This document shows positions 2,130 to 48,466 of a stretch of DNA of 64,000 nucleotides, one piece after another. This DNA is from an uncultured archaeon (lineage in GTDB: Archaea > Nanohalarchaeota > Nanosalinia > Nanosalinales > Nanoanaerosalinaceae): positions 9,339-73,338 of the forward strand of contig CAZFEL010000001.1 of NCBI GenBank assembly GCA_964517675.1. Direction: 5' to 3'. How positions within the stretch are numbered: position 1 is the stretch's first letter; the number at the start of each line of letters is the position of its first letter. Below the pieces are notes generated by a model. It was not told the origin of the DNA. It saw nothing but the letters and a program-made list of their open reading frames with translations, and did no database searches. The position numbers were made by a program, and so were the translations under genes.

Positions 2130-2786
2130 TCAAGCTACATCGATCGCTTCTCCTGTCGCATCAGCCTGGCTCGTCTCGTAGATGACATCCGCAACCTTCG
2201 ACGGCTCGTCTCCCTCGAAGCCCGTCATTGCGGTCTTTGTCCTCCGCGGACAGACGGCATTCACAGTAACATCGTCCAGCTCCGTCGCGACAGCATCACT
2301 GAACCGGATGACCGCCGCCTTCGACCCGCAGTACGCAGCAAGGCCCGGGGATCCGTTTTTCCCGGCCACGGATGCGATGTTGACGATCGAAGCATCCTCC
2401 GCCAGGTGCTCGAGAGAGGCTTGCGTGCAGTGAAAGACACCGTAGACGTTGACCCGCATGATGGTATCGAAGGTCTCGACGTCCATCTCCCCAATCGGGG
2501 CGGTCTCGGCGATCCCTGCGTTGTTGACGATGACATCGATCATGCCCATCCGCGCCCTGACCATCTCGAAGGCCCGGTCGACCTGCTCGCGGTCCGTGAC
2601 ATCCGCCTGGACGAAGGTAGCGGTCCCGGCGTCCTGCTGGATGAGCTGGTGGGTCGGTGTGCCACCCTCCCGCGGTTCCTCCTGCCTATCAAGGACGGCG
2701 ACCTGGTAGCCCTCCTCGTGGAACCGCTGACATGTTTCCCTACCGATACCGGATGACCCGCCCGTGACAAGAACTGTCCGCGTCAT
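2130..2786 (-). CDS. short-chain dehydrogenase/reductase (SDR) family oxidoreductase
   Basis: N-terminal VTGGSSGIGR Rossmann motif, NNAG, and YxxxK (YCGSKAA). ATG at 2786. Confidence 0.85.
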   Translation of the reverse strand: MTRTVLVTGGSSGIGRETCQRFHEEGYQVAVLDRQEEPREGGTPTHQLIQQDAGTATFVQADVTDREQVDRAFEMVRARMGMIDVIVNNAGIAETAPIGEMDVETFDTIMRVNVYGVFHCTQASLEHLAEDASIVNIASVAGKNGSPGLAAYCGSKAAVIRFSDAVATELDDVTVNAVCPRRTKTAMTGFEGDEPSKVADVIYETSQADATGEAIDVA

Positions 2787-2830
2787 ACAGCAGGTTCAGG
2801 GCCGAGCATTAAGACGGTTTCGGCCCATGA

Positions 2831-3310
2831 TCAGAGCCCGTCCAGCCCGACAGCCTCGAGGTGCTCGTCATAGTCGTCCACATCATCGAGATCGGGGTAC
2901 TCCCGTTCGAGGTCGATCGCAGCGAGGGGCTCCCTGTCGGTCCGCTCGGTGACCTGCTCAAGCACATCGAGGGTCACCGCTACCGCGACATAGGCATCAT
3001 CGAGGGCGTTGTAGAAGTCATCGATATCCCTGTCCGCCGCCGGCATCACATGGGTGTCACGACGCCTGTCATAGATCACGTCCTCATAGAGCCCATCATC
3101 GAACCGTTCATCGGCCTCCTCCAGCTGGGTGGCGATATCGCGCTCGTACCGGTCGAGCTCGGCCGCATCGAGGGCCATCCCGGAACCGTGATCGTCCGGT
3201 TCGGCTGTCTGGTCGATGGCACCGACGTACTCGATAGCCAAGGACAGTGCGGCCTCTGCCTCCCGCCTGGCCGTGTCGGCCATGTCATCGTAGAGGCGTC
3301 GTGATTGCAT
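2831..3310 (-). CDS. hypothetical acidic protein
   Basis: ORF 2831..3628, with start taken at the internal ATG (3310) because the upstream part is Arg/Pro-rich and implausible. The remainder is strongly acidic. Confidence 0.45.
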   Translation of the reverse strand: MQSRRLYDDMADTARREAEAALSLAIEYVGAIDQTAEPDDHGSGMALDAAELDRYERDIATQLEEADERFDDGLYEDVIYDRRRDTHVMPAADRDIDDFYNALDDAYVAVAVTLDVLEQVTERTDREPLAAIDLEREYPDLDDVDDYDEHLEAVGLDGL

Positions 3311-3363: not shown

Positions 3364-3798
3364 GTGGCGGGATACCCTCCGGATATGCGCGAACTGAAAC
3401 AGGCCATAGCGAAGCTACAGTCCGGCGGTTCTGCGGACGGGACAACGACCTACGGCAACGTCGACCTGCCATACGAGGTGCCCGGCGATGAGCTGGTCCA
3501 GAAGGCGACCGATGCCCTCGAGGCATTCGCCCGGGATGAAAGCTACACAACAGACGTCCAGGAACGGCGGCAGCGATATCTCCCGGACAAGGACAGGCAG
3601 ATCCTCGAATCGAGCCGGCTCGAGGCACGTTCGAGGAAAGGCATCCACCGGAAACTGTTCACCGGATCCAGAGAGGGATTTTTCCTCCATATCGATCACG
3701 AGCGGTCCTACGATGAGGTCGGTATCGATACCATCGGCGGCACGGTCCCCGAGAGCGACATCGATGCCTTCGTTGAACACCTGTACGAGCAGTTCTGA
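3364..3798 (+). CDS. hypothetical protein
   Basis: 144-aa ORF. Alternative start at M8 (3385). TATA-like TTTAAAG about 25-40 nt upstream. Confidence 0.45.
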   Translation: MAGYPPDMRELKQAIAKLQSGGSADGTTTYGNVDLPYEVPGDELVQKATDALEAFARDESYTTDVQERRQRYLPDKDRQILESSRLEARSRKGIHRKLFTGSREGFFLHIDHERSYDEVGIDTIGGTVPESDIDAFVEHLYEQF

Positions 3799-6179: not shown

Positions 6180-8204
6180 ATGGAACTCGGAACAGTCGAG
6201 GGCGCTGTCAACACTGAGAAATTCCACTTCGAGGCCCACAAGGACGTCGAGAAGTTCGACTTCATCGCTGTGAAGGCCAACACAGATGAGGCCGAGTGGA
6301 TGCTCGCCCAGATCAACGAGGTCGAGAAGAAACCTCTTGATGATTCCGAGAAGGTCGATGAGGCCTACAAGACTGTTGCAGAGGCCAACATCATCGGTTA
6401 CCGGAACAAGGGCCTCCTGAAGAAACCGAGATCCGTCATTGAGCCGGACTCGATCGTCTACCGGGCGGACCAGGACCTGATCTCCGAGACGCTGGGACTG
6501 GATCAGAACGGGCTGTACATGGGCCAGCTGCTCTCGGACCCTGATATCGATATCTTCCTCGATCCCGAGGACCTCTACAAGCATTTCGCGGTCTTGGCCA
6601 AGACCGGCGCGGGTAAGTCATACTCGACGGCCGTGATGATCGAAGAGCTACTCGCGAAGGACTATCCGGTCCTGATCATCGACCCGCACGGCGAGTACCA
6701 CAGCCTCTCCCGGCCAAACGATATCAGCGAGGAGGACATGGAGACGTACCACCTCGAACCCGAGAGCTTCGATGCGAAGAGTTACTCGACGAACACGGAG
6801 CTCAACCGGGAGGCCCGGCAGTTGACGTTCTCCTCGAGGAACATGTCCGCAAAGGAGATCCAGCAGGTCGTGCCGACGAACCTGACGAACTCCCAGCTCG
6901 GGGTGCTGTACACCGCCCTGAAGGAGCTGAAAAAGCGTGAGAGCTACACCTTGGACGATGTCATCGAGACCTGCGAGCAGCAGGACTCGAAGGCGAAATG
7001 GAATCTGATCAACATGCTGGAGGCGGTCCGGGACTCTGGCCTGTTCGAGAAGGACCCGACCACCCTGGAGGACCTGGTCGAGCCCGGACGGGCCACGATC
7101 GTCAATCTCCGCGGTGTCGACCCGGAGGTCCAGGAGACTGTCGTGTTCAAGCTCTCGAAGGAGCTGTTCGAGATGCGCAAGCGAGGCAAGCTGGAGCCGT
7201 TCTTCATGGTGATGGAGGAAGCACACAACTTCGTCCCGGAGAAAGGGATGGGAAAGGCGGTCTCGTCGGATATCTTACGGAAGATCGCCTCCGAGGGTCG
7301 GAAGTTCGGGCTGGGGATCGGTGTGATCTCCCAGCGGCCGGCCAACGTCGCGAAGAACATCCTCTCGCAGTGCAACACCCAGCTGATCATGCGTGTGACG
7401 AACCCGAACGACCTGTCCGCGATCTCCCGGAGCTTCGAGGGCGTGACATCCGAGGTCGAGGACTCGATCACCTCCCTGCCGCCCGGTGTGGGCCTTGTCT
7501 TGGGCAAGGAACACCCGATCATGACCGACATCAGGGTCAGGAAGAGCCTCCACGGCGGCGGGATGAAGGACGTCTCAGAGGAAGAAGGCATCGAGAAAGG
7601 AGATGAGGTCCGCGAGGACGACCTCGCTGAGAAGGCCGAGGCCGCAGAGCCCCAGATAGAACCGGAGGAGAACTTGATCGAGGCCTTCGAGCCGGACATG
7701 GATCTTGGGGATCTCCCGGAGGGAGCTGATGATGTGACGACGGCCTACTACCCGATCTACATCGTCGAGACGCCTGTCGGTCGGCTGGCGATCGACGGCG
7801 AGGACGGGGCCATCAAGGCCCGGGACCTGAACCTGACGGACCAGGCGGATTCGGTCCTGGACGCGATCAAGGACCACGACATGCGGCTGAAGGAGCTGTC
7901 GGAGCTGACATCTCTGGACGAGGAGACTATCTCGATGATCCTGGATCGGCTGCGGGAGTACAACCTGGTGGCAAAAGACGATGACCTGTACAGCTACACC
8001 GGTGTCGATCTGTTCGCCCGGGGGATCGGGGAATCGGACGCCGGCAGGGAAAAGGTGATCGAGCCCGATATCGACGAGACGGAGGCAAAAAAGATAGCAA
8101 AGGAAGAGCTGGGCAAGAAGGACGAGTCCATCAGGCTGGTGTATTACCCGTACTACAGGACCGGCAACCGCGTCTTCGATGCGGTGCTGGAGAAAGAGGT
8201 CTGA
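6180..8204 (+). CDS. HerA/FtsK-like P-loop ATPase (DUF87-type) with an acidic linker and a C-terminal wHTH-like extension
   Basis: Walker A LAKTGAGKSYS, Walker B FMVMEEAHNF, and the conserved ISQRPANV...CNTQLIMRVTNPND block typical of HerA/DUF87. The C-terminus carries a putative winged helix (ISMILDRLREYNLVAKDD) and a repeated YYPxY motif. Confidence 0.85.
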   Translation: MELGTVEGAVNTEKFHFEAHKDVEKFDFIAVKANTDEAEWMLAQINEVEKKPLDDSEKVDEAYKTVAEANIIGYRNKGLLKKPRSVIEPDSIVYRADQDLISETLGLDQNGLYMGQLLSDPDIDIFLDPEDLYKHFAVLAKTGAGKSYSTAVMIEELLAKDYPVLIIDPHGEYHSLSRPNDISEEDMETYHLEPESFDAKSYSTNTELNREARQLTFSSRNMSAKEIQQVVPTNLTNSQLGVLYTALKELKKRESYTLDDVIETCEQQDSKAKWNLINMLEAVRDSGLFEKDPTTLEDLVEPGRATIVNLRGVDPEVQETVVFKLSKELFEMRKRGKLEPFFMVMEEAHNFVPEKGMGKAVSSDILRKIASEGRKFGLGIGVISQRPANVAKNILSQCNTQLIMRVTNPNDLSAISRSFEGVTSEVEDSITSLPPGVGLVLGKEHPIMTDIRVRKSLHGGGMKDVSEEEGIEKGDEVREDDLAEKAEAAEPQIEPEENLIEAFEPDMDLGDLPEGADDVTTAYYPIYIVETPVGRLAIDGEDGAIKARDLNLTDQADSVLDAIKDHDMRLKELSELTSLDEETISMILDRLREYNLVAKDDDLYSYTGVDLFARGIGESDAGREKVIEPDIDETEAKKIAKEELGKKDESIRLVYYPYYRTGNRVFDAVLEKEV

Positions 8205-8222
8205 GAGGACCACCGGCAGGGT

Positions 8223-8229
8223 TTAAAAC
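8223..8229 (+). promoter_or_regulatory. TATA-box-like element upstream of the structured leader and tRNA-Val region
   Basis: TTTAAAA about 27 nt upstream of 8256, where the structured element starts. Confidence 0.3.
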
Positions 8230-8255
8230 GCTTACCGCCTAAGGAAAATGACATA

Positions 8256-8355
8256 GGCAAGTCTTCCGGCGGGTTCTGTTCGAACCCGTCAATCGCACTC
8301 CCCAATTTCGGGAGAAATTGGGTCGACCAGCTTCCGTAGGAAGCTGGGACTTGCC
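8256..8355 (+). ncRNA. structured RNA-like element (8-bp terminal inverted repeat enclosing three perfect hairpins)
   Basis: GGCAAGTC at 8256 and GACTTGCC at 8348 bracket three hairpins: GGGTTC...GAACCC, CCAATTTC-GGGA-GAAATTGG, and CCAGCTTCC-GTA-GGAAGCTGG. It sits between a TATA-like box and the tRNA-Val 5' fragment. Confidence 0.3.
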
Positions 8356-8365
8356 GATCTGCAAG

Positions 8366-8388
8366 GGGTCCGTGGTCTAGTTGGTCAG
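8366..8388 (+). repeat. partial copy of the tRNA-Val 5' end (acceptor 5' strand plus D-arm, 23 nt)
   Basis: GGGTCCGTGGTCTAGTTGGTCAG is identical to nt 1-23 of the intact tRNA at 8484 and diverges afterwards. Confidence 0.8.
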
Positions 8389-8483
8389 CTCGGGTTCCGC
8401 CCCGAGTGTGCAGGGCCGGGATTCGCTGACGCGAACCCGGCGGAGATCGCTCGATGTCGCCGGGGCACCGGTGGATACTGCAG

Positions 8484-8557
8484 GGGTCCGTGGTCTAGTT
8501 GGTCAGGACGTCGCCTTGACGTGGCGAAGGTCGGCGGTTCAAATCCGCTCGGACCCA
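8484..8557 (+). tRNA. tRNA-Val (anticodon GAC)
   Basis: Hand-folded cloverleaf: acceptor GGGTCCG/CGGACCC, D-stem GTCT/GGAC, anticodon stem TCGCC/GGCGA with loop TTGACGT, T-arm GGCGG-TTCAAAT-CCGCT, discriminator A. Confidence 0.85.
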
Positions 8558-8615
8558 TCTCGTCTTTCTCGATGCTTAGAGCGTGATTTGAACCTTCTAG
8601 AAGCGCCAGCTTCAT

Positions 8616-8639
8616 GCGGTCCAAATCCGCTCGGACCCA
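8616..8639 (+). repeat. partial copy of the tRNA-Val 3' end (T-arm plus acceptor 3' strand, 24 nt, 1 mismatch)
   Basis: GCGGTCCAAATCCGCTCGGACCCA versus tRNA GCGGTTCAAATCCGCTCGGACCCA. Lies about 58 nt downstream of the tRNA. Confidence 0.8.
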
Positions 8640-8715
8640 CTCCTACGCGGAGTGGACACGCGAGATGCGGGACACACGGTCCCGCCTCAGAGACGATCTT
8701 TCTCTCTTCCTGCAC

Positions 8716-9567
8716 TCAGTCGACGTAGCGGCTGCGTTCATCGACCTCTGTGATGACGATGCCATCGCCCTCGATTGTCTCCGGACAGCTTTCACGCTGC
8801 TGGACCGATATCTCGGAGGTCTCGACCACGCCAACCATATCCTCGGGCGAAACCGGATTCCGGGCGGTAACGGTCACAGTCTCGGTCGTGCGGGCGCCGA
8901 TTGTGTCGATCCTGTCCTCATAATACACGTCGGACCGTCGCATTGAATCATTGTAGTAAAAGCAGGCCTCGTACTCCGGGAGATCGGCCGACCGCGGGAA
9001 GATGAACCCGTTCTCGACCGTCATCGTCCCGAGGGCGACATCGTACTCCTGGTAGTCGGCTGTCTCGTAGAGGTCGGTCTCGTAGGTCACCGGCGGTCCG
9101 AGGAGCTCGATCCCCACCAGGACGAGGGCAAGGACACCGATGCCCGCGAAAAGCTTCTTCGCCCTGTCCCACCCGATCTCCAGTCGATCTTCCCGGATCA
9201 GGTAGCCGAGCGCGATGAACAGAACAGACGAGACCGCAAGGAACAGAAAGGTCTGGTCCGTCGAGAACGTGAAGGTGAGGGCAGTGTACAGGAAAAAGCT
9301 CAGGTACGATGCAGCGCCAAGTAGATGACACAGCGTGGCGAGGAGGGACTGGCGTACCACGAGGCCGGCCGTGATGAACCCGCAGAACCCGAGGAACAGG
9401 AGGAATGATTTCGTCGCTGTCGAGAGACCGAACAAGAAGGCACGACCGAAGTAAAGGACTGCTACCACCCCAAAGACGGCTCCTACCCCGTACATGATCG
9501 TGGTGGCATCGACGTCGAGGTCCATACCATATCTGGGGGACCAGTGGTTTTTATACCACAAGGTCAT
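8716..9567 (-). CDS. polytopic membrane protein (hypothetical)
   Basis: 283-aa ORF with multiple hydrophobic helices followed by a hydrophilic C-terminal domain. Alternative start at M15. Confidence 0.55.
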   Translation of the reverse strand: MTLWYKNHWSPRYGMDLDVDATTIMYGVGAVFGVVAVLYFGRAFLFGLSTATKSFLLFLGFCGFITAGLVVRQSLLATLCHLLGAASYLSFFLYTALTFTFSTDQTFLFLAVSSVLFIALGYLIREDRLEIGWDRAKKLFAGIGVLALVLVGIELLGPPVTYETDLYETADYQEYDVALGTMTVENGFIFPRSADLPEYEACFYYNDSMRRSDVYYEDRIDTIGARTTETVTVTARNPVSPEDMVGVVETSEISVQQRESCPETIEGDGIVITEVDERSRYVD

Positions 9568-19809: not shown

Positions 19810-20110
19810 GACCAGGCCATACAGACCGGTCTCTCTGGGGTCTGCGTGGACTCCGGCCCCGCCGGAGTGGAGCGCAGGTGACCTTCAGGGCGGACCGCTC
19901 TGGCCCAAGCCCCGATGGCTAAGCCTGGTATAGCGGCCGACTCGTAATGGGCGCGGATCGTCCGCGTCCACGGTCCTGGATGCTCTCCCCATGGCCTGGC
20001 GGGAGCCCAGGGTACGCCCAGTCTTTCCCTGGCTAGGAAAGACGCCTGTGATGAGGAGGATCATTAAGTGCTTGAGCTAACGCGATGATGATGTGAACAC
20101 CCTCCGAGCA
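19810..20110 (+). ncRNA. structured ncRNA candidate, most consistent with SRP (7S) RNA
   Basis: About 300-nt non-coding GC-rich stretch with a long-range helix (CGTGGAC ... GTCCACG) and several perfect local hairpins (GCGCGGA-TCG-TCCGCG; GTCTTTCC-ctggcta-GGAAAGAC). CCGGAGTGGAGCGCAGG resembles the SRP domain IV CCGGAAGG-AGCA motif. RNase P is disfavoured because the motif order is wrong. Confidence 0.3.
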
Positions 20111-20183
20111 GGGTTACCGGGCTGTAAAATGCAGGAGGCACCGCTAACGCGTACTGCCCGCTGCAGACGAGATATCGGCAGGT

Positions 20184-20209
20184 CCCGGGTTCAAATCCCG
20201 GTCGGGGCT
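20184..20209 (+). repeat. tRNA 3'-end-like element, copy 1 (T-arm CCGGG-TTCAAAT-CCCGG plus acceptor 3' strand TCGGGGC)
   Basis: One of three direct copies (20184, 20275, 20357). No matching 5' acceptor strand exists upstream, so it is not a full tRNA. Confidence 0.7.
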
Positions 20210-20274
20210 TCTCTTTGCCTTCTTTCGGTATGTTCGGGGATTTGATAGCCTCGAGAAAATCTCCGATTTTCGAC

Positions 20275-20299
20275 GGGTTCAAATCCCGGTCGGGGCTTC
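20275..20299 (+). repeat. tRNA 3'-end-like element, copy 2
   Basis: GGGTTCAAATCCCGGTCGGGGCTTC is identical to the core of copy 1. Confidence 0.7.
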
Positions 20300-20356
20300 A
20301 CTCCGTTCAGCTTCCGCTGCGGGAGTTCTCGACCCGTTCTTCTCTCCCGAGAAGCC

Positions 20357-20421
20357 GGGAGTTCAAATCCCGGTCGGGGCTTCTCTTTGACATCTCTCGA
20401 TATTTTCGGGATTTGATAGCT
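20357..20421 (+). repeat. tRNA 3'-end-like element, copy 3, plus shared about 40-nt downstream unit
   Basis: GGGAGTTCAAATCCCGGTCGGGGCTTC followed by TCTTTGaCaTCTcTCGaTATtTTCGGGATTTGATAGC, which also follows copy 1. Confidence 0.7.
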
Positions 20422-29332: not shown

Positions 29333-29562
29333 AGGAGGTAGCCACGGAGTGGTCGTCACCCTCCAGAAACAATCGGCGGGCACAGGAAGCCGAGGTAGCC
29401 AAGTGGAACATCTTGGCAACCCCCTCTGTCAAGAGGAATATAGTACGCGGAGGTAGCCAAGTGGAACATCTTGGCAACCCCCTCTGTCAAGAGGAATATA
29501 GTACGCGGAGGTAGCCAAGTGGAACATCTTGGCAACCCCCTCTGTCAAGAGGAATATAGTAC
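29333..29562 (+). repeat. tandem array of four 56-58-nt units, each beginning with a copy of the first 18 nt of tRNA-Leu(CAG)
   Basis: Units at 29389, 29447 and 29505 (58 nt) are 57-58/58 identical and start with GC(G/C)GAGGTAGCCAAGTGG. The unit at 29333 is degenerate. The array abuts the intact tRNA at 29563. Confidence 0.85.
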
Positions 29563-29645
29563 GCGGAGGTAGCCAAGTGGCCAAAGGCGCAGCGTTCAGG
29601 GCGCTGTCGGTTAGCCGTTCGCAGGTTCGAATCCTGCCCTCCGCA
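29563..29645 (+). tRNA. tRNA-Leu (anticodon CAG)
   Basis: Hand-folded: acceptor GCGGAGG/CCTCCGC, anticodon stem CAGCG/CGCTG with loop TTCAGGG, long variable arm, T-arm GCAGG-TTCGAAT-CCTGC, discriminator A. Confidence 0.9.
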
Positions 29646-47514: not shown

Positions 47515-48144
47515 GTGATGCTAGAAGAACAACGGAAGGAGGTACTCGAGCACGCACCAGACCTCGCTGATATGACACCGGCACGGACAGGTAACCTCTC
47601 GGTCAGGGACGGCGACAGGTTCGCCGTGACACCGACGGGTGTCGCCTACGATGACTTCGACCTCGATGACGTCCCCGTGGTCGATATGGACGGCGACCAC
47701 ATCGCCGGGGAGATGGAACCGACCAGCGAGGTCCCGATGCATACCGGCATCTACCGGCAGCGGGACGCGGGAGCAATCGTGCACACCCACTCGACGTGGG
47801 CGACGACGATGGCGGTGCTGCATGAACCACTCCCACCGATCCATTACATGATCACGACCTCGGGCAAGGAGATCCCTGTCGCGGAGTACGCGACATACGG
47901 CACGCGGGAGCTTGCAGACAACGTTGTCGCCGCTTTGGAGGAAAGCGCCTCGCGCTCCTGCTTCATCGCGAACCACGGCCTGGTCGTGATGGCGGATGAC
48001 ATCGAGACGGCCATCGAGAACGCGGTCCACATCGAGAACCTCTCGAAGATCTACCTCAACGCCAGACAGGTCGGTGAACCCAAGGAGCTGCCGGACGAGA
48101 AGCTGGATGCGGTCATCGAGAAGTTCAGGGACTACGGCCAGTGA
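47515..48144 (+). CDS. class II aldolase/adducin-family protein (fuculose-phosphate aldolase-like)
   Basis: GNLSVR ... HTHS ... ANHG motifs. Confidence 0.85.
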
Positions 48145-48243
48145 CATCCGCAGTTTTAAAACTGGCACACGTATTGGGCGATTGCCAGTCCATGGTCGGT
48201 TCGCCATGCGAACCGTCCGGCGCTGTCGACTGGCGCGCCAGTC

Positions 48244-48385
48244 GCGGGGGTAGCCAAGTGGCCAAAGGCGCAGGGCTTAGGTTCCCGGCTCCTTATCCGA
48301 GGAGGCGGGTTGAGAAGATCTCTGATCTTCGAACGAAGATACCCTGTCCCTCAGGGGTTCGCAGGTTCGAATCCTGTCCCCCGCA
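48244..48385 (+). tRNA. tRNA-Leu (anticodon TAG) with a putative 59-nt intron after position 37
   Basis: Exon 1 (48244-48281: acceptor, D-arm, CAGGG-CTTAGG) and exon 2 (48341-48385: A-CCCTG, long variable arm, T-arm, acceptor CCCCCGC-A) assemble into a perfect type-II cloverleaf. The intervening 59 nt contain two hairpins. Confidence 0.6.
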
Positions 48386-48445
48386 TTTCACCTTCGTTCA
48401 GTGCTTCCGCCAGTATTCGGCACCCGAGAAAGCCTGCTTTCGACG

Positions 48446-48466
48446 GTCGAATCCTGTCCCCACGCA
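48446..48466 (+). repeat. partial copy of the tRNA-Leu(TAG) 3' end
   Basis: GGTCGAATCCTGTCCCCACGCA versus tRNA GGTTCGAATCCTGTCCCCCGCA. About 60 nt downstream of the tRNA. Confidence 0.7.

Follow-up and report, generated by a model that had tools for sequence, protein, structure and literature searches.

The 64-kb stretch of DNA analysed here (the window) has a guanine-plus-cytosine (GC) content of about 60% and, judging from the homologues of a HerA-like ATPase that it encodes, comes from the genome of a high-GC DPANN nanohaloarchaeon. Features were called throughout the window with ARAGORN, Rfam covariance models, a repeat search, Tandem Repeats Finder (TRF) and RNAfold. Beside the HerA-like gene lies an intact tRNA-Val(GAC) gene (8484-8557, + strand; called by ARAGORN and matched by the Rfam tRNA model with 67 bits), which is flanked on both sides by partial copies of its own ends. 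The upstream copy (8364-8388, +) comprises nucleotides (nt) 1-23 of the tRNA together with 2 nt of leader and forms a 25-nt exact direct repeat of 8482-8506, with similarity that extends back to a CTGCA(A)G motif at about 8358 if one indel is allowed. The downstream copy (8616-8639, +) consists of the T-arm and the 3' strand of the acceptor stem (nt 50-73) and is identical to 8534-8557 at 23/24 positions, the sole mismatch being U55 to C, at a universally conserved position. The upstream copy is separated from the gene by 95 nt and the downstream copy by 58 nt, confirming the arrangement given in a preliminary description of this DNA and extending its 5' copy into the leader. Neither fragment was called as a tRNA, and we regard both as non-functional as tRNAs because the anticodon arm is missing from each.

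The 58-nt segment between the gene and its 3' copy (S_a, 8558-8615, +) opens with a pyrimidine-rich tract (8558-8578), followed by an antisense copy of the T-arm (A', 8579-8594; GAGCGtGATTTGAACC) and a hairpin, GAAGC-GCCA-GCTTC (8600-8613). The match of A' to the antisense tRNA was reached by 0/300 shuffles, and S_a and the 3' fragment are together predicted to fold as a two-tier hairpin. The 95-nt non-coding segment on the 5' side (insert I1, 8389-8483, +) carries predicted hairpins at 8389-8406 and 8415-8441 and has the leader motif CTGCAG once more at its end; it is missing from the orthologous locus of the closest relative (L006) and had no homologue among any of the fetched loci. Neither a T-arm remnant in I1 (shuffle p = 0.75) nor homology to the leader upstream of the intact gene beyond CTGCAG (p = 0.13) was significant. 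Further upstream, a 102-nt insert with three hairpins of 7-9 bp (I0, 8243-8344, +) is also absent from L006, where the sequence on either side matches the window at 94-95% identity. In its predicted fold, a stem between the insert sequence GGCAAGTC and the ancestral leader GACTTGCC closes a four-way junction (-57.2 kcal/mol, z = -6.1); I0 contains no tRNA duplication and has no Rfam match. The TATA-like box TTTAAAA (8222-8228, +), a conserved putative promoter of tRNA-Val that lies 28-40 nt upstream of the gene in L006, L002, L007, L017 and L018, is now 255 nt upstream of the intact tRNA-Val. No further A/T-rich box occurs in 8229-8483, and this box is the probable functional promoter. A weak Rfam "skipping-rope" match at 8609-8693 (23.8 bits, against a threshold of 36.7) was taken as chance.

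Partial end copies accompany all of the tRNA genes found in the 64 kb (5/5), so that the recurrence reported in the preliminary description holds for every gene considered there and for a fifth, tRNA-Thr(CGU), which it had overlooked. This gene (19908-20211, +) is interrupted at position 37/38 by a 227-nt intron; it was found by ARAGORN with intron search and missed both by the default ARAGORN run and by Rfam at the gathering threshold. It is followed by a 62-nt cassette (S1, 20212-20273, +; A' at 20236-20245, hairpin at 20255-20271), an exact copy of the tRNA 3' end (20274-20299, +), a second, 61-nt cassette (S2, 20300-20360, +) and a second exact 3' copy (20361-20383, +), the direct repeats of this array being 26, 23 and 29 nt long and all exact. 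At the initiator-type tRNA-Met (61915-61991, - strand; locus 61824-61991), a 68-nt cassette (61847-61914, -) with a hairpin GAAGATC-TCC-GATCTTC at 61851-61867 and a predicted fold separates the gene from a 3' fragment (61824-61846, -) that belongs to a 26-nt exact repeat. The tRNA-Leu(UAG) locus (48244-48466, +; ARAGORN and Rfam calls with a repeat scan) has a 59-nt intron, inside which lies the hairpin GAAGATC-TCT-GATCTTC (48314-48330, +), and continues into a 59-nt 3' cassette (48386-48444, +; hairpin at 48428-48441) and a partial copy of the 3' end (48445-48466, +). At tRNA-Leu(CAG) (29563-29645, +) it is the 5' end that is duplicated: its first 18 nt recur at intervals of 58 nt, in copies that begin at 29389 (with one mismatch), 29447 and 29505 (TRF: period 58, 3.3 copies, 100% match), and each copy is followed by an antisense piece of the D-arm (CTTGGC) and a hairpin.

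Two further observations concern these loci. Every unit of the perfect 58-nt x 3.3 array, which spans 29392-29580, holds the motif AATATAG; because this is the only A/T-rich box upstream of tRNA-Leu(CAG), the functional promoter of that gene may lie inside the repeat unit. Within the tRNA-Thr intron, positions 20044-20109 look like a C/D box (GTGATGA ... GATGATGA ... CCGA) and give weak Rfam matches to sR14, sR3 and sR19 (E 0.2-0.7).

Across the whole window, the exact direct repeats of at least 18 nt with a spacing of at most 250 nt all fall at tRNA genes (8/8). In shuffled sequence only 0.08 close repeats of at least 14 nt are expected, which excludes chance as their source. Nor are the repeats an artefact of assembly, because the point where the 5' fragment meets the insert is found again in L001, from the independent Logan assembly of another run (SRR5202689), and because the same architecture is present in metagenome-assembled genomes (MAGs) of other studies. 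In practice, such fragments break assemblies and confuse tRNA annotation. The JGI contigs L008 and L009 encode an identical HerA protein, and the sole difference between them is a stretch of N beginning immediately behind the first tRNA-Val fragment (L009, 5337-5443), which points to heterogeneity of the array among assemblers or populations.

The order of genes around tRNA-Val (NDK, HerA, tRNA-Val, ..., PTH2, TruD) is conserved among the loci that we compared, so these tRNA-Val loci can be treated as orthologous. They include those of Ca. Asbonarchaeum (L002), the closest relative (L006), a JGI contig (L008) and GCA_022729315 (L018). The HerA-like ATPase is 76% identical to its homologue in a Ca. 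Asbonarchaeum danakilense MAG, and all its close homologues are from Nanohaloarchaeota; the preliminary assignment of this DNA as haloarchaeal is thus not borne out. One distant locus was the sole result of a metagenome scan for relatives of HerA. Between L006 and the window, HerA is 93% identical in amino acids and 89% in nucleotides, and the tRNA-Val sequences are identical.

In L006 the promoter box and leader run directly into tRNA-Val, and it is the window's outer fragment, rather than its intact gene, that retains this ancestral context: the 21 nt upstream of the 5' fragment match the L006 leader at 19/21 positions, against only 13/22 for the leader of the intact gene. Taken together, the 5' fragment and the 19 nt upstream of it are 95.5% identical to L006 over 44 nt. 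The same holds on the 3' side in the relatives, where the first fragment of L002 with its trailer matches the tRNA 3' end and trailer of L010 (45/47), and the third fragment of L002 with its trailer matches those of L008 (46/46). The trailer behind the window's 3' fragment is in turn 66% identical to that behind the second fragment of L018. Because the gene-distal copy keeps the ancestral flank in these orthologous loci, the outer copies are the displaced original ends of the gene, with the ends of the intact gene adjoining inserted DNA.

The number of copies varies between the relatives. L002 has four 3' copies behind tRNA-Val, L018 has three and L008 one or two, and the loci L006, L007, L010 and L017 are free of fragments; L007 and L017 nevertheless keep the first 20 nt of S_a. 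L002 and L008 have their units in different orders. In L002, L018 and the arrays of the window, distal fragments are shorter or mismatched, which fits the addition of new units beside the gene. Outside the TATA box, the leaders of the window and of the deeply diverged L002 cannot be aligned. The tRNA-Val orthologue of L018 (4776-4935), which three 3' fragments follow, has an 86-nt intron and was mis-called as tRNA-Ala by ARAGORN. More generally, tRNA genes are breakpoints of synteny, with close relatives carrying different downstream genes, and synteny is likewise broken at the initiator tRNA-Met locus of the close relative L015. Directly behind tRNA-Met in the Ca. Asbonarchaeum locus L016, a segment of lower GC content (47-53%; 2558-3000) contains a LAGLIDADG-like open reading frame (ORF) and a scaffold gap; it may be an integrated element, and no tRNA fragment was found downstream of this tRNA-Met.

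The segments between the copies are non-coding and 40-121 bp long, and those on the 3' side in the window cluster in length (58, 62, 61, 59 and 68 nt). The 3' units are built alike, opening with a pyrimidine-rich tract and continuing with an antisense copy of the T-loop and of the 3' half of the T-stem (A'), a hairpin of 5-8 bp, 2-4 nt and then the fragment. Pairing between A' and the fragment's T-arm gives a two-tier hairpin, a fold that RNAfold recovers in eight units belonging to five tRNA identities and four genomes. In several units, A' matches the antisense tRNA better than shuffled sequences do, and the cognate tRNA is its best match in 6/8. In the S_a of the window and of L002, which are 77% identical as the first spacers behind tRNA-Val, both A' and the fragment track lineage-specific changes in the T-stem and acceptor stem of tRNA-Val.

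The inner hairpins fall into two near-invariant families, GAAnATC-TCC-GATn'TTC and GAAGC-nnnn-GCTTC. Members of the first occur at initiator tRNA-Met and tRNA-Thr in the window and at tRNA-Val in L002 and L008. One of them, AGAAGATCTCCGATCTTC, is shared by the window's initiator tRNA-Met and the tRNA-Val locus of L002 and recurs in the tRNA-Leu(UAG) introns of both the window and L032, where one loop position differs (TCT instead of TCC), while in the corresponding intron of L031 the hairpin is kept in place with compensatory changes and a GTCA loop. Within the second family, the AGAAGCGCCAGCTTC hairpin is identical at 15/15 positions between tRNA-Val in the window and tRNA-Leu(CAG) in L033. 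In an alignment of eight hairpins, which had been preselected as hairpins, all 56 cells pair and 4/7 pairs show compensatory changes, a result equalled by 0/500 shuffles. Of the perfect intergenic hairpins, 12/17 lie near tRNAs. Inspection gave no consistent C-stem and bulge or ACA box, and identification of the hairpins as kink-turn (K-turn) or H/ACA elements was rejected.

A separate set of hairpins, of the form (C)GGTTCG(C)-loop-(G)CGAACC(G) and often preceded by GAGTAGAA, recurs beside tRNA-Val and tRNA-Leu(UAG) in several genomes, both in leaders and in trailers: at 48197-48215 and 8272-8286 in the window, 5046-5062 in L002, 5251-5265 in L008, 5149-5165 in L018, 2520-2536 in L031, and 3690-3706 and 3956-3972 in L032. 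This family may be a palindromised 5' half of the T-arm.

The account that we favour, with a probability of about 45%, is that small non-coding cassettes, themselves mobilised in trans, were serially inserted into the tRNA genes by site-specific recombination. A cassette carrying its own copy of a tRNA end would recombine into the gene in a Campbell-type event resembling integration at an attachment (att) site, the join lying in the T-stem or T-loop on the 3' side and in the D-arm on the 5' side. The copy brought by the cassette would restore an intact gene, and the old end would be pushed outward together with its old flank. Repeated insertion beside the intact gene would then stack units, the newest closest to the gene, and recombination between direct repeats could later delete units, leaving clean loci such as L006, or amplify them, as in the 58-nt x 3.3 array at tRNA-Leu(CAG). 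As recombination site we envisage the folded palindrome of roughly 50 nt, with the antisense segment and the T-arm of the fragment as its outer stem; the enzyme would be a tRNA-targeting recombinase acting in trans, encoded elsewhere in the genome or by a virus.

The 3' blocks begin at tRNA positions 50-61 and end at the 3' end or up to 6 nt beyond it (at tRNA-Val, twice at tRNA-Thr, at tRNA-Leu(UAG) and initiator tRNA-Met, and in L002, L008 and L018). Both the T-loop and the 3' end are sublocations used by integrases in tRNA genes, according to Williams 2002 as cited in PMC9897764. That the small units themselves would be mobile is favoured by the clustered lengths of the spacers, by the conservation of S_a in length, structure and sequence (77%), and by the near identity of hairpins across tRNAs and species. 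The preliminary description had interpreted the fragments as att scars. The topology, the start of the 3' blocks in the T-arm, the stacking and the decay of distal copies all speak for that interpretation, which is nevertheless incomplete, the spacers being common modules; and the repeated ancient integration and excision that it invoked is not sufficient alone, since excision would remove the duplication. Its other suggestion, a genome-specific mechanism duplicating tRNA termini locally, falls short because foreign spacer sequences are common to different loci.

Several results weigh against insertion of mobile cassettes. The absence of an element or integrase between the copies, remarked on in the preliminary description, is borne out by the spacer lengths (40-121 bp) and extends to the 76 ORFs scanned across the window, among which Pfam gave no match to an integrase, transposase, reverse transcriptase or Cas family. 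IMG/VR was scanned three times, for the hairpin by itself, for the 3' end of tRNA-Val and for the hairpin combined with the T-arm, and only chance matches in coding regions or to bacteriophage tRNA arrays turned up; a blastn search of 50,697 phage records with 8243-8720 matched none of them; and neither a free element nor a phage attachment site (attP) was found in IMG/VR or the phage collection, which lacks the Danakil nanohaloarchaeal virus record PQ827550. I0 shows no tRNA duplication whatever. Double-stranded circles of 80-140 bp would be too stiff for ordinary synapsis, so that mobility would call for an intermediate out of the ordinary, such as a single-stranded one. An integrase normally recognises only one tRNA, and the five tRNAs hit here would require several specificities or an enzyme generic for T-loops. 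The hairpin that sits stably inside the tRNA-Leu(UAG) intron is not explained by an att arm, and S_a may be vertically inherited rather than mobile, given the 20 nt of it that L007 and L017 keep without a fragment. As a separate observation from IMG/VR, a high-GC viral contig (L027; GC content 0.61) carries at about 1767 a tRNA-like stretch, GGGTCGC...GCGGTTCAAATCCGCCCCGACCCA, which ARAGORN did not call and which could be a partial, attP-like tRNA belonging to some unrelated virus of halophiles.

The strongest alternative, though a doubtful one, is that the units are collapsed remnants: full-size viruses or plasmids with tyrosine integrases would have inserted at the tRNA genes, and deletion would have left two immobile att-proximal arms. 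The att topology and the T-loop sublocation are equally expected under this explanation, a common pool of viruses would supply near-identical hairpins without selection in the host, and the position of tRNA genes at synteny breakpoints fits as well. In support of this explanation and of the favoured one alike, tyrosine integrases do occur in nanohaloarchaeal viruses, of which a provirus is known (bioRxiv 10.1101/2025.02.15.638363), and for collapse there is a precedent in Haloquadratum, where core deletion mediated by repeats produced uniform 52-bp "terminal-only" elements (PMC3119063). However, none of the tRNA loci examined, roughly 15, has a full-size element beside it; the one candidate is the AT-rich LAGLIDADG-like ORF behind initiator tRNA-Met of L016, which has no fragment. 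Random deletion would not cluster the spacers at 58, 62, 61, 59 and 68 nt, nor would it leave S_a equal in length and structure across two deeply diverged genomes, and the arrangement of hairpin plus T-arm was found on no viral contig of IMG/VR. If the units are such remnants, they record intense turnover of viruses or plasmids at the tRNA genes of an organism whose tRNAs are all single-copy, which would explain why these genes are synteny breakpoints.

A bolder version of cassette insertion, which we think unlikely, would place these units in a so far undescribed class of miniature non-coding cassettes, present in the high-GC clade of Nanohaloarchaeota to which this genome belongs, that insert and excise at the T-loops of many tRNAs. 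Their recombination site would be an attC-like fold built from an antisense T-arm, the conserved hairpin and a T-arm, and they would leave a stacked record, comparable to that of integrons or CRISPR, next to essentially every tRNA gene, with the same hairpin module having colonised a tRNA intron.

It is improbable that the copies arose as by-products of mutation with no recombinase involved, through slippage or unequal crossing-over and fold-back template switching at T- and D-arm hairpins of highly transcribed genes, followed by gene conversion that keeps them identical to the gene. Such a process would account for the perfect 58-nt tandem repeat at tRNA-Leu(CAG); the antisense T-arm copies match the local tRNA and are mirror-symmetric about the central hairpin, as extension of a palindrome predicts; and the tRNA-Thr fragments are 100% identical, against only 74% for the trailers next to them (S1 and S1'), which suggests conversion. 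The clustering of perfect intergenic hairpins near tRNAs (12/17) agrees with it too. Simple tandem duplication, on the other hand, would make each spacer equal to the sequence after the fragment, which is untrue at tRNA-Val, at S2 of tRNA-Thr, at tRNA-Leu(UAG), at initiator tRNA-Met and in L002, and is the case solely for the secondary amplification at tRNA-Leu(CAG) (58 nt x 3.3, 100%). The distal copies bear different, ancestral flanks, the central hairpins do not derive from the local tRNA and are common to unrelated tRNAs and species, and the junctions cluster at T-arm positions 50-61. Fold-back repair from the variable region of each tRNA itself was rejected on the ground that the same hairpin flanks initiator tRNA-Met and tRNA-Thr and sits in a tRNA-Leu intron; partly in favour of fold-back, CTCCGATCTTCG is identical at 12/12 positions to the antisense tRNA-Val of L010. 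Also rejected was the origin of the locus as a nested gene in a single event, with a 227-nt tRNA-bearing insert replacing the anticodon arm: the other four tRNAs have one-sided fragments, and L002 has S_a and a fragment without a 5' fragment.

Selection in the host is more improbable still. The units would then be modules of the precursor tRNA or of the locus, such as leader or trailer hairpins guiding or protecting processing, or copies of the 3' end serving as decoy attachment sites that draw integrating elements off the essential single-copy tRNA genes. Compensatory changes do preserve the hairpins, including the one in the tRNA-Leu(UAG) intron of three relatives, S_a is conserved at 77% amid unalignable intergenic DNA, the fragment and A' follow lineage-specific changes of tRNA-Val, and long structured leaders are usual in this clade. 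Yet the units are dispensable, being absent from close relatives, the distal fragments decay (the tRNA-Val fragment of the window has U55C), and a minihelix would lack the complementary 5' strand of the acceptor stem. Finally, although split and intron-rich tRNAs are known in DPANN archaea (PMC3218864) and the two outer fragments could form an acceptor stem with each other, the notion that the fragments are exons of one split, permuted or intron-containing gene, or an assembly artefact, is effectively refuted: Rfam gave a single tRNA covariance-model match in 8150-8750, even at E <= 5, the outer fragments have no anticodon arm, the 3' one carries U55C, a conserved intact tRNA-Val stands between them, and the same junctions appear in independent assemblies and other MAGs.

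The genes adjoining the tRNAs of the window are of housekeeping type and encode a DUF2157 membrane protein, a metallophosphoesterase, a glyoxalase, an aldolase, a GNAT protein, an arginase and GAPDH. The class II aldolase (47515-48144) has its nearest relatives beyond the immediate clade among haloarchaea (Haloarchaeobius, Halorarum and Halobacterium; 66-68% identity), which suggests gene transfer from the host lineage. At 55614-60735, the phosphotransferase-system genes EIIB, EIIA, HPr and EI adjoin the glycolytic genes PGK, a DeoC-type aldolase and GAPDH, in a block that is syntenic in the Asbonarchaeum locus L016, where EIIC and PfkB are also present.

Genes for tRNAs are classic landing sites for mobile DNA, and the known scars bracket kilobases at few tRNAs per genome. 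What is new here is the presence of miniature, structured and stacked duplications of tRNA ends at every examined tRNA of a DPANN lineage, so that a streamlined symbiont shows the topology of att scars with only about 60 bp of structured modules between the copies. If these modules are mobile, they would be the smallest known integrative units that target tRNAs, they would call for a recombinase with unusual substrate needs, and their arrays could be read as histories of insertion.

Among known systems, att duplication by tyrosine integrases comes closest. As there, a direct repeat runs from the T-arm stem-loop through the end of the gene, the gene is regenerated and the displaced copy adjoins the flank that existed before insertion; tandem stacking is possible in both. 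Known att cases at tRNAs bracket integrase-carrying elements of 3-120 kb, whereas the copies in the window enclose 40-121 bp of palindromic non-coding DNA with no integrase or remnant between them (nor among the 76 ORFs), occur at 5/5 tRNAs in 64 kb and include duplications of the 5' end. At tRNAs of Thermococcaceae, for instance, the att repeats of integrase elements bracket 9-23 kb (PMC9897764).

The arrays also resemble those of integrons, in which an attI site is followed by cassettes whose attC ends recombine as folded single strands, in the serial insertion at a fixed site, in units that end in an imperfect palindrome of about 50 nt and in an order that varies between lineages, and deletion or shuffling by recombination between repeats is plausible here as well. 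Integrons are bacterial, however, and the likeness is one of analogy only: the window has no IntI, the units hold no genes, the part of attI would be played by the T-arm of the tRNA, and the outer arms (GGATTYGAAC and GTTCRAATCC) do not fit the attC core RYYYAAC ... GTTRRRY. With CRISPR arrays and with the target-site duplication of casposons at the 3' ends of tRNAs the units share a partly palindromic repeat that is duplicated with each insertion at a leader-like fixed end, giving an array that records events. They differ in that the spacers have common modules and the repeats are 13-29 nt long, and no cas or casposase genes or terminal inverted repeats were found in the window.

The terminal-only PATEs and small mobile repeats (SMRs) of Haloquadratum are, like the present units, non-coding palindromic insertions of 50-110 bp that vary between strains, with short forms arising by deletion of the core, but they lack target duplication and association with tRNAs (PMC3119063). 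Palindromes are present in the window too; here the 5' and 3' units carry long tRNA duplications, only I0 being without one, and no IS200/IS605 ends, TnpA or TnpB, or other transposase were found in the window. Split, permuted and intron-containing tRNA genes, together with intron transposition (PMC3218864), offer a last comparison, in which pieces of tRNA lie beside structured inserts in DPANN genomes. The pieces described here are redundant copies beside an intact gene that assemble into no cloverleaf, and no exon junctions defined by a bulge-helix-bulge (BHB) motif were found at the fragments; one hairpin family is nevertheless common to the cassettes and a tRNA intron, and thereby bears on the origin of archaeal tRNA introns and gene fragments.

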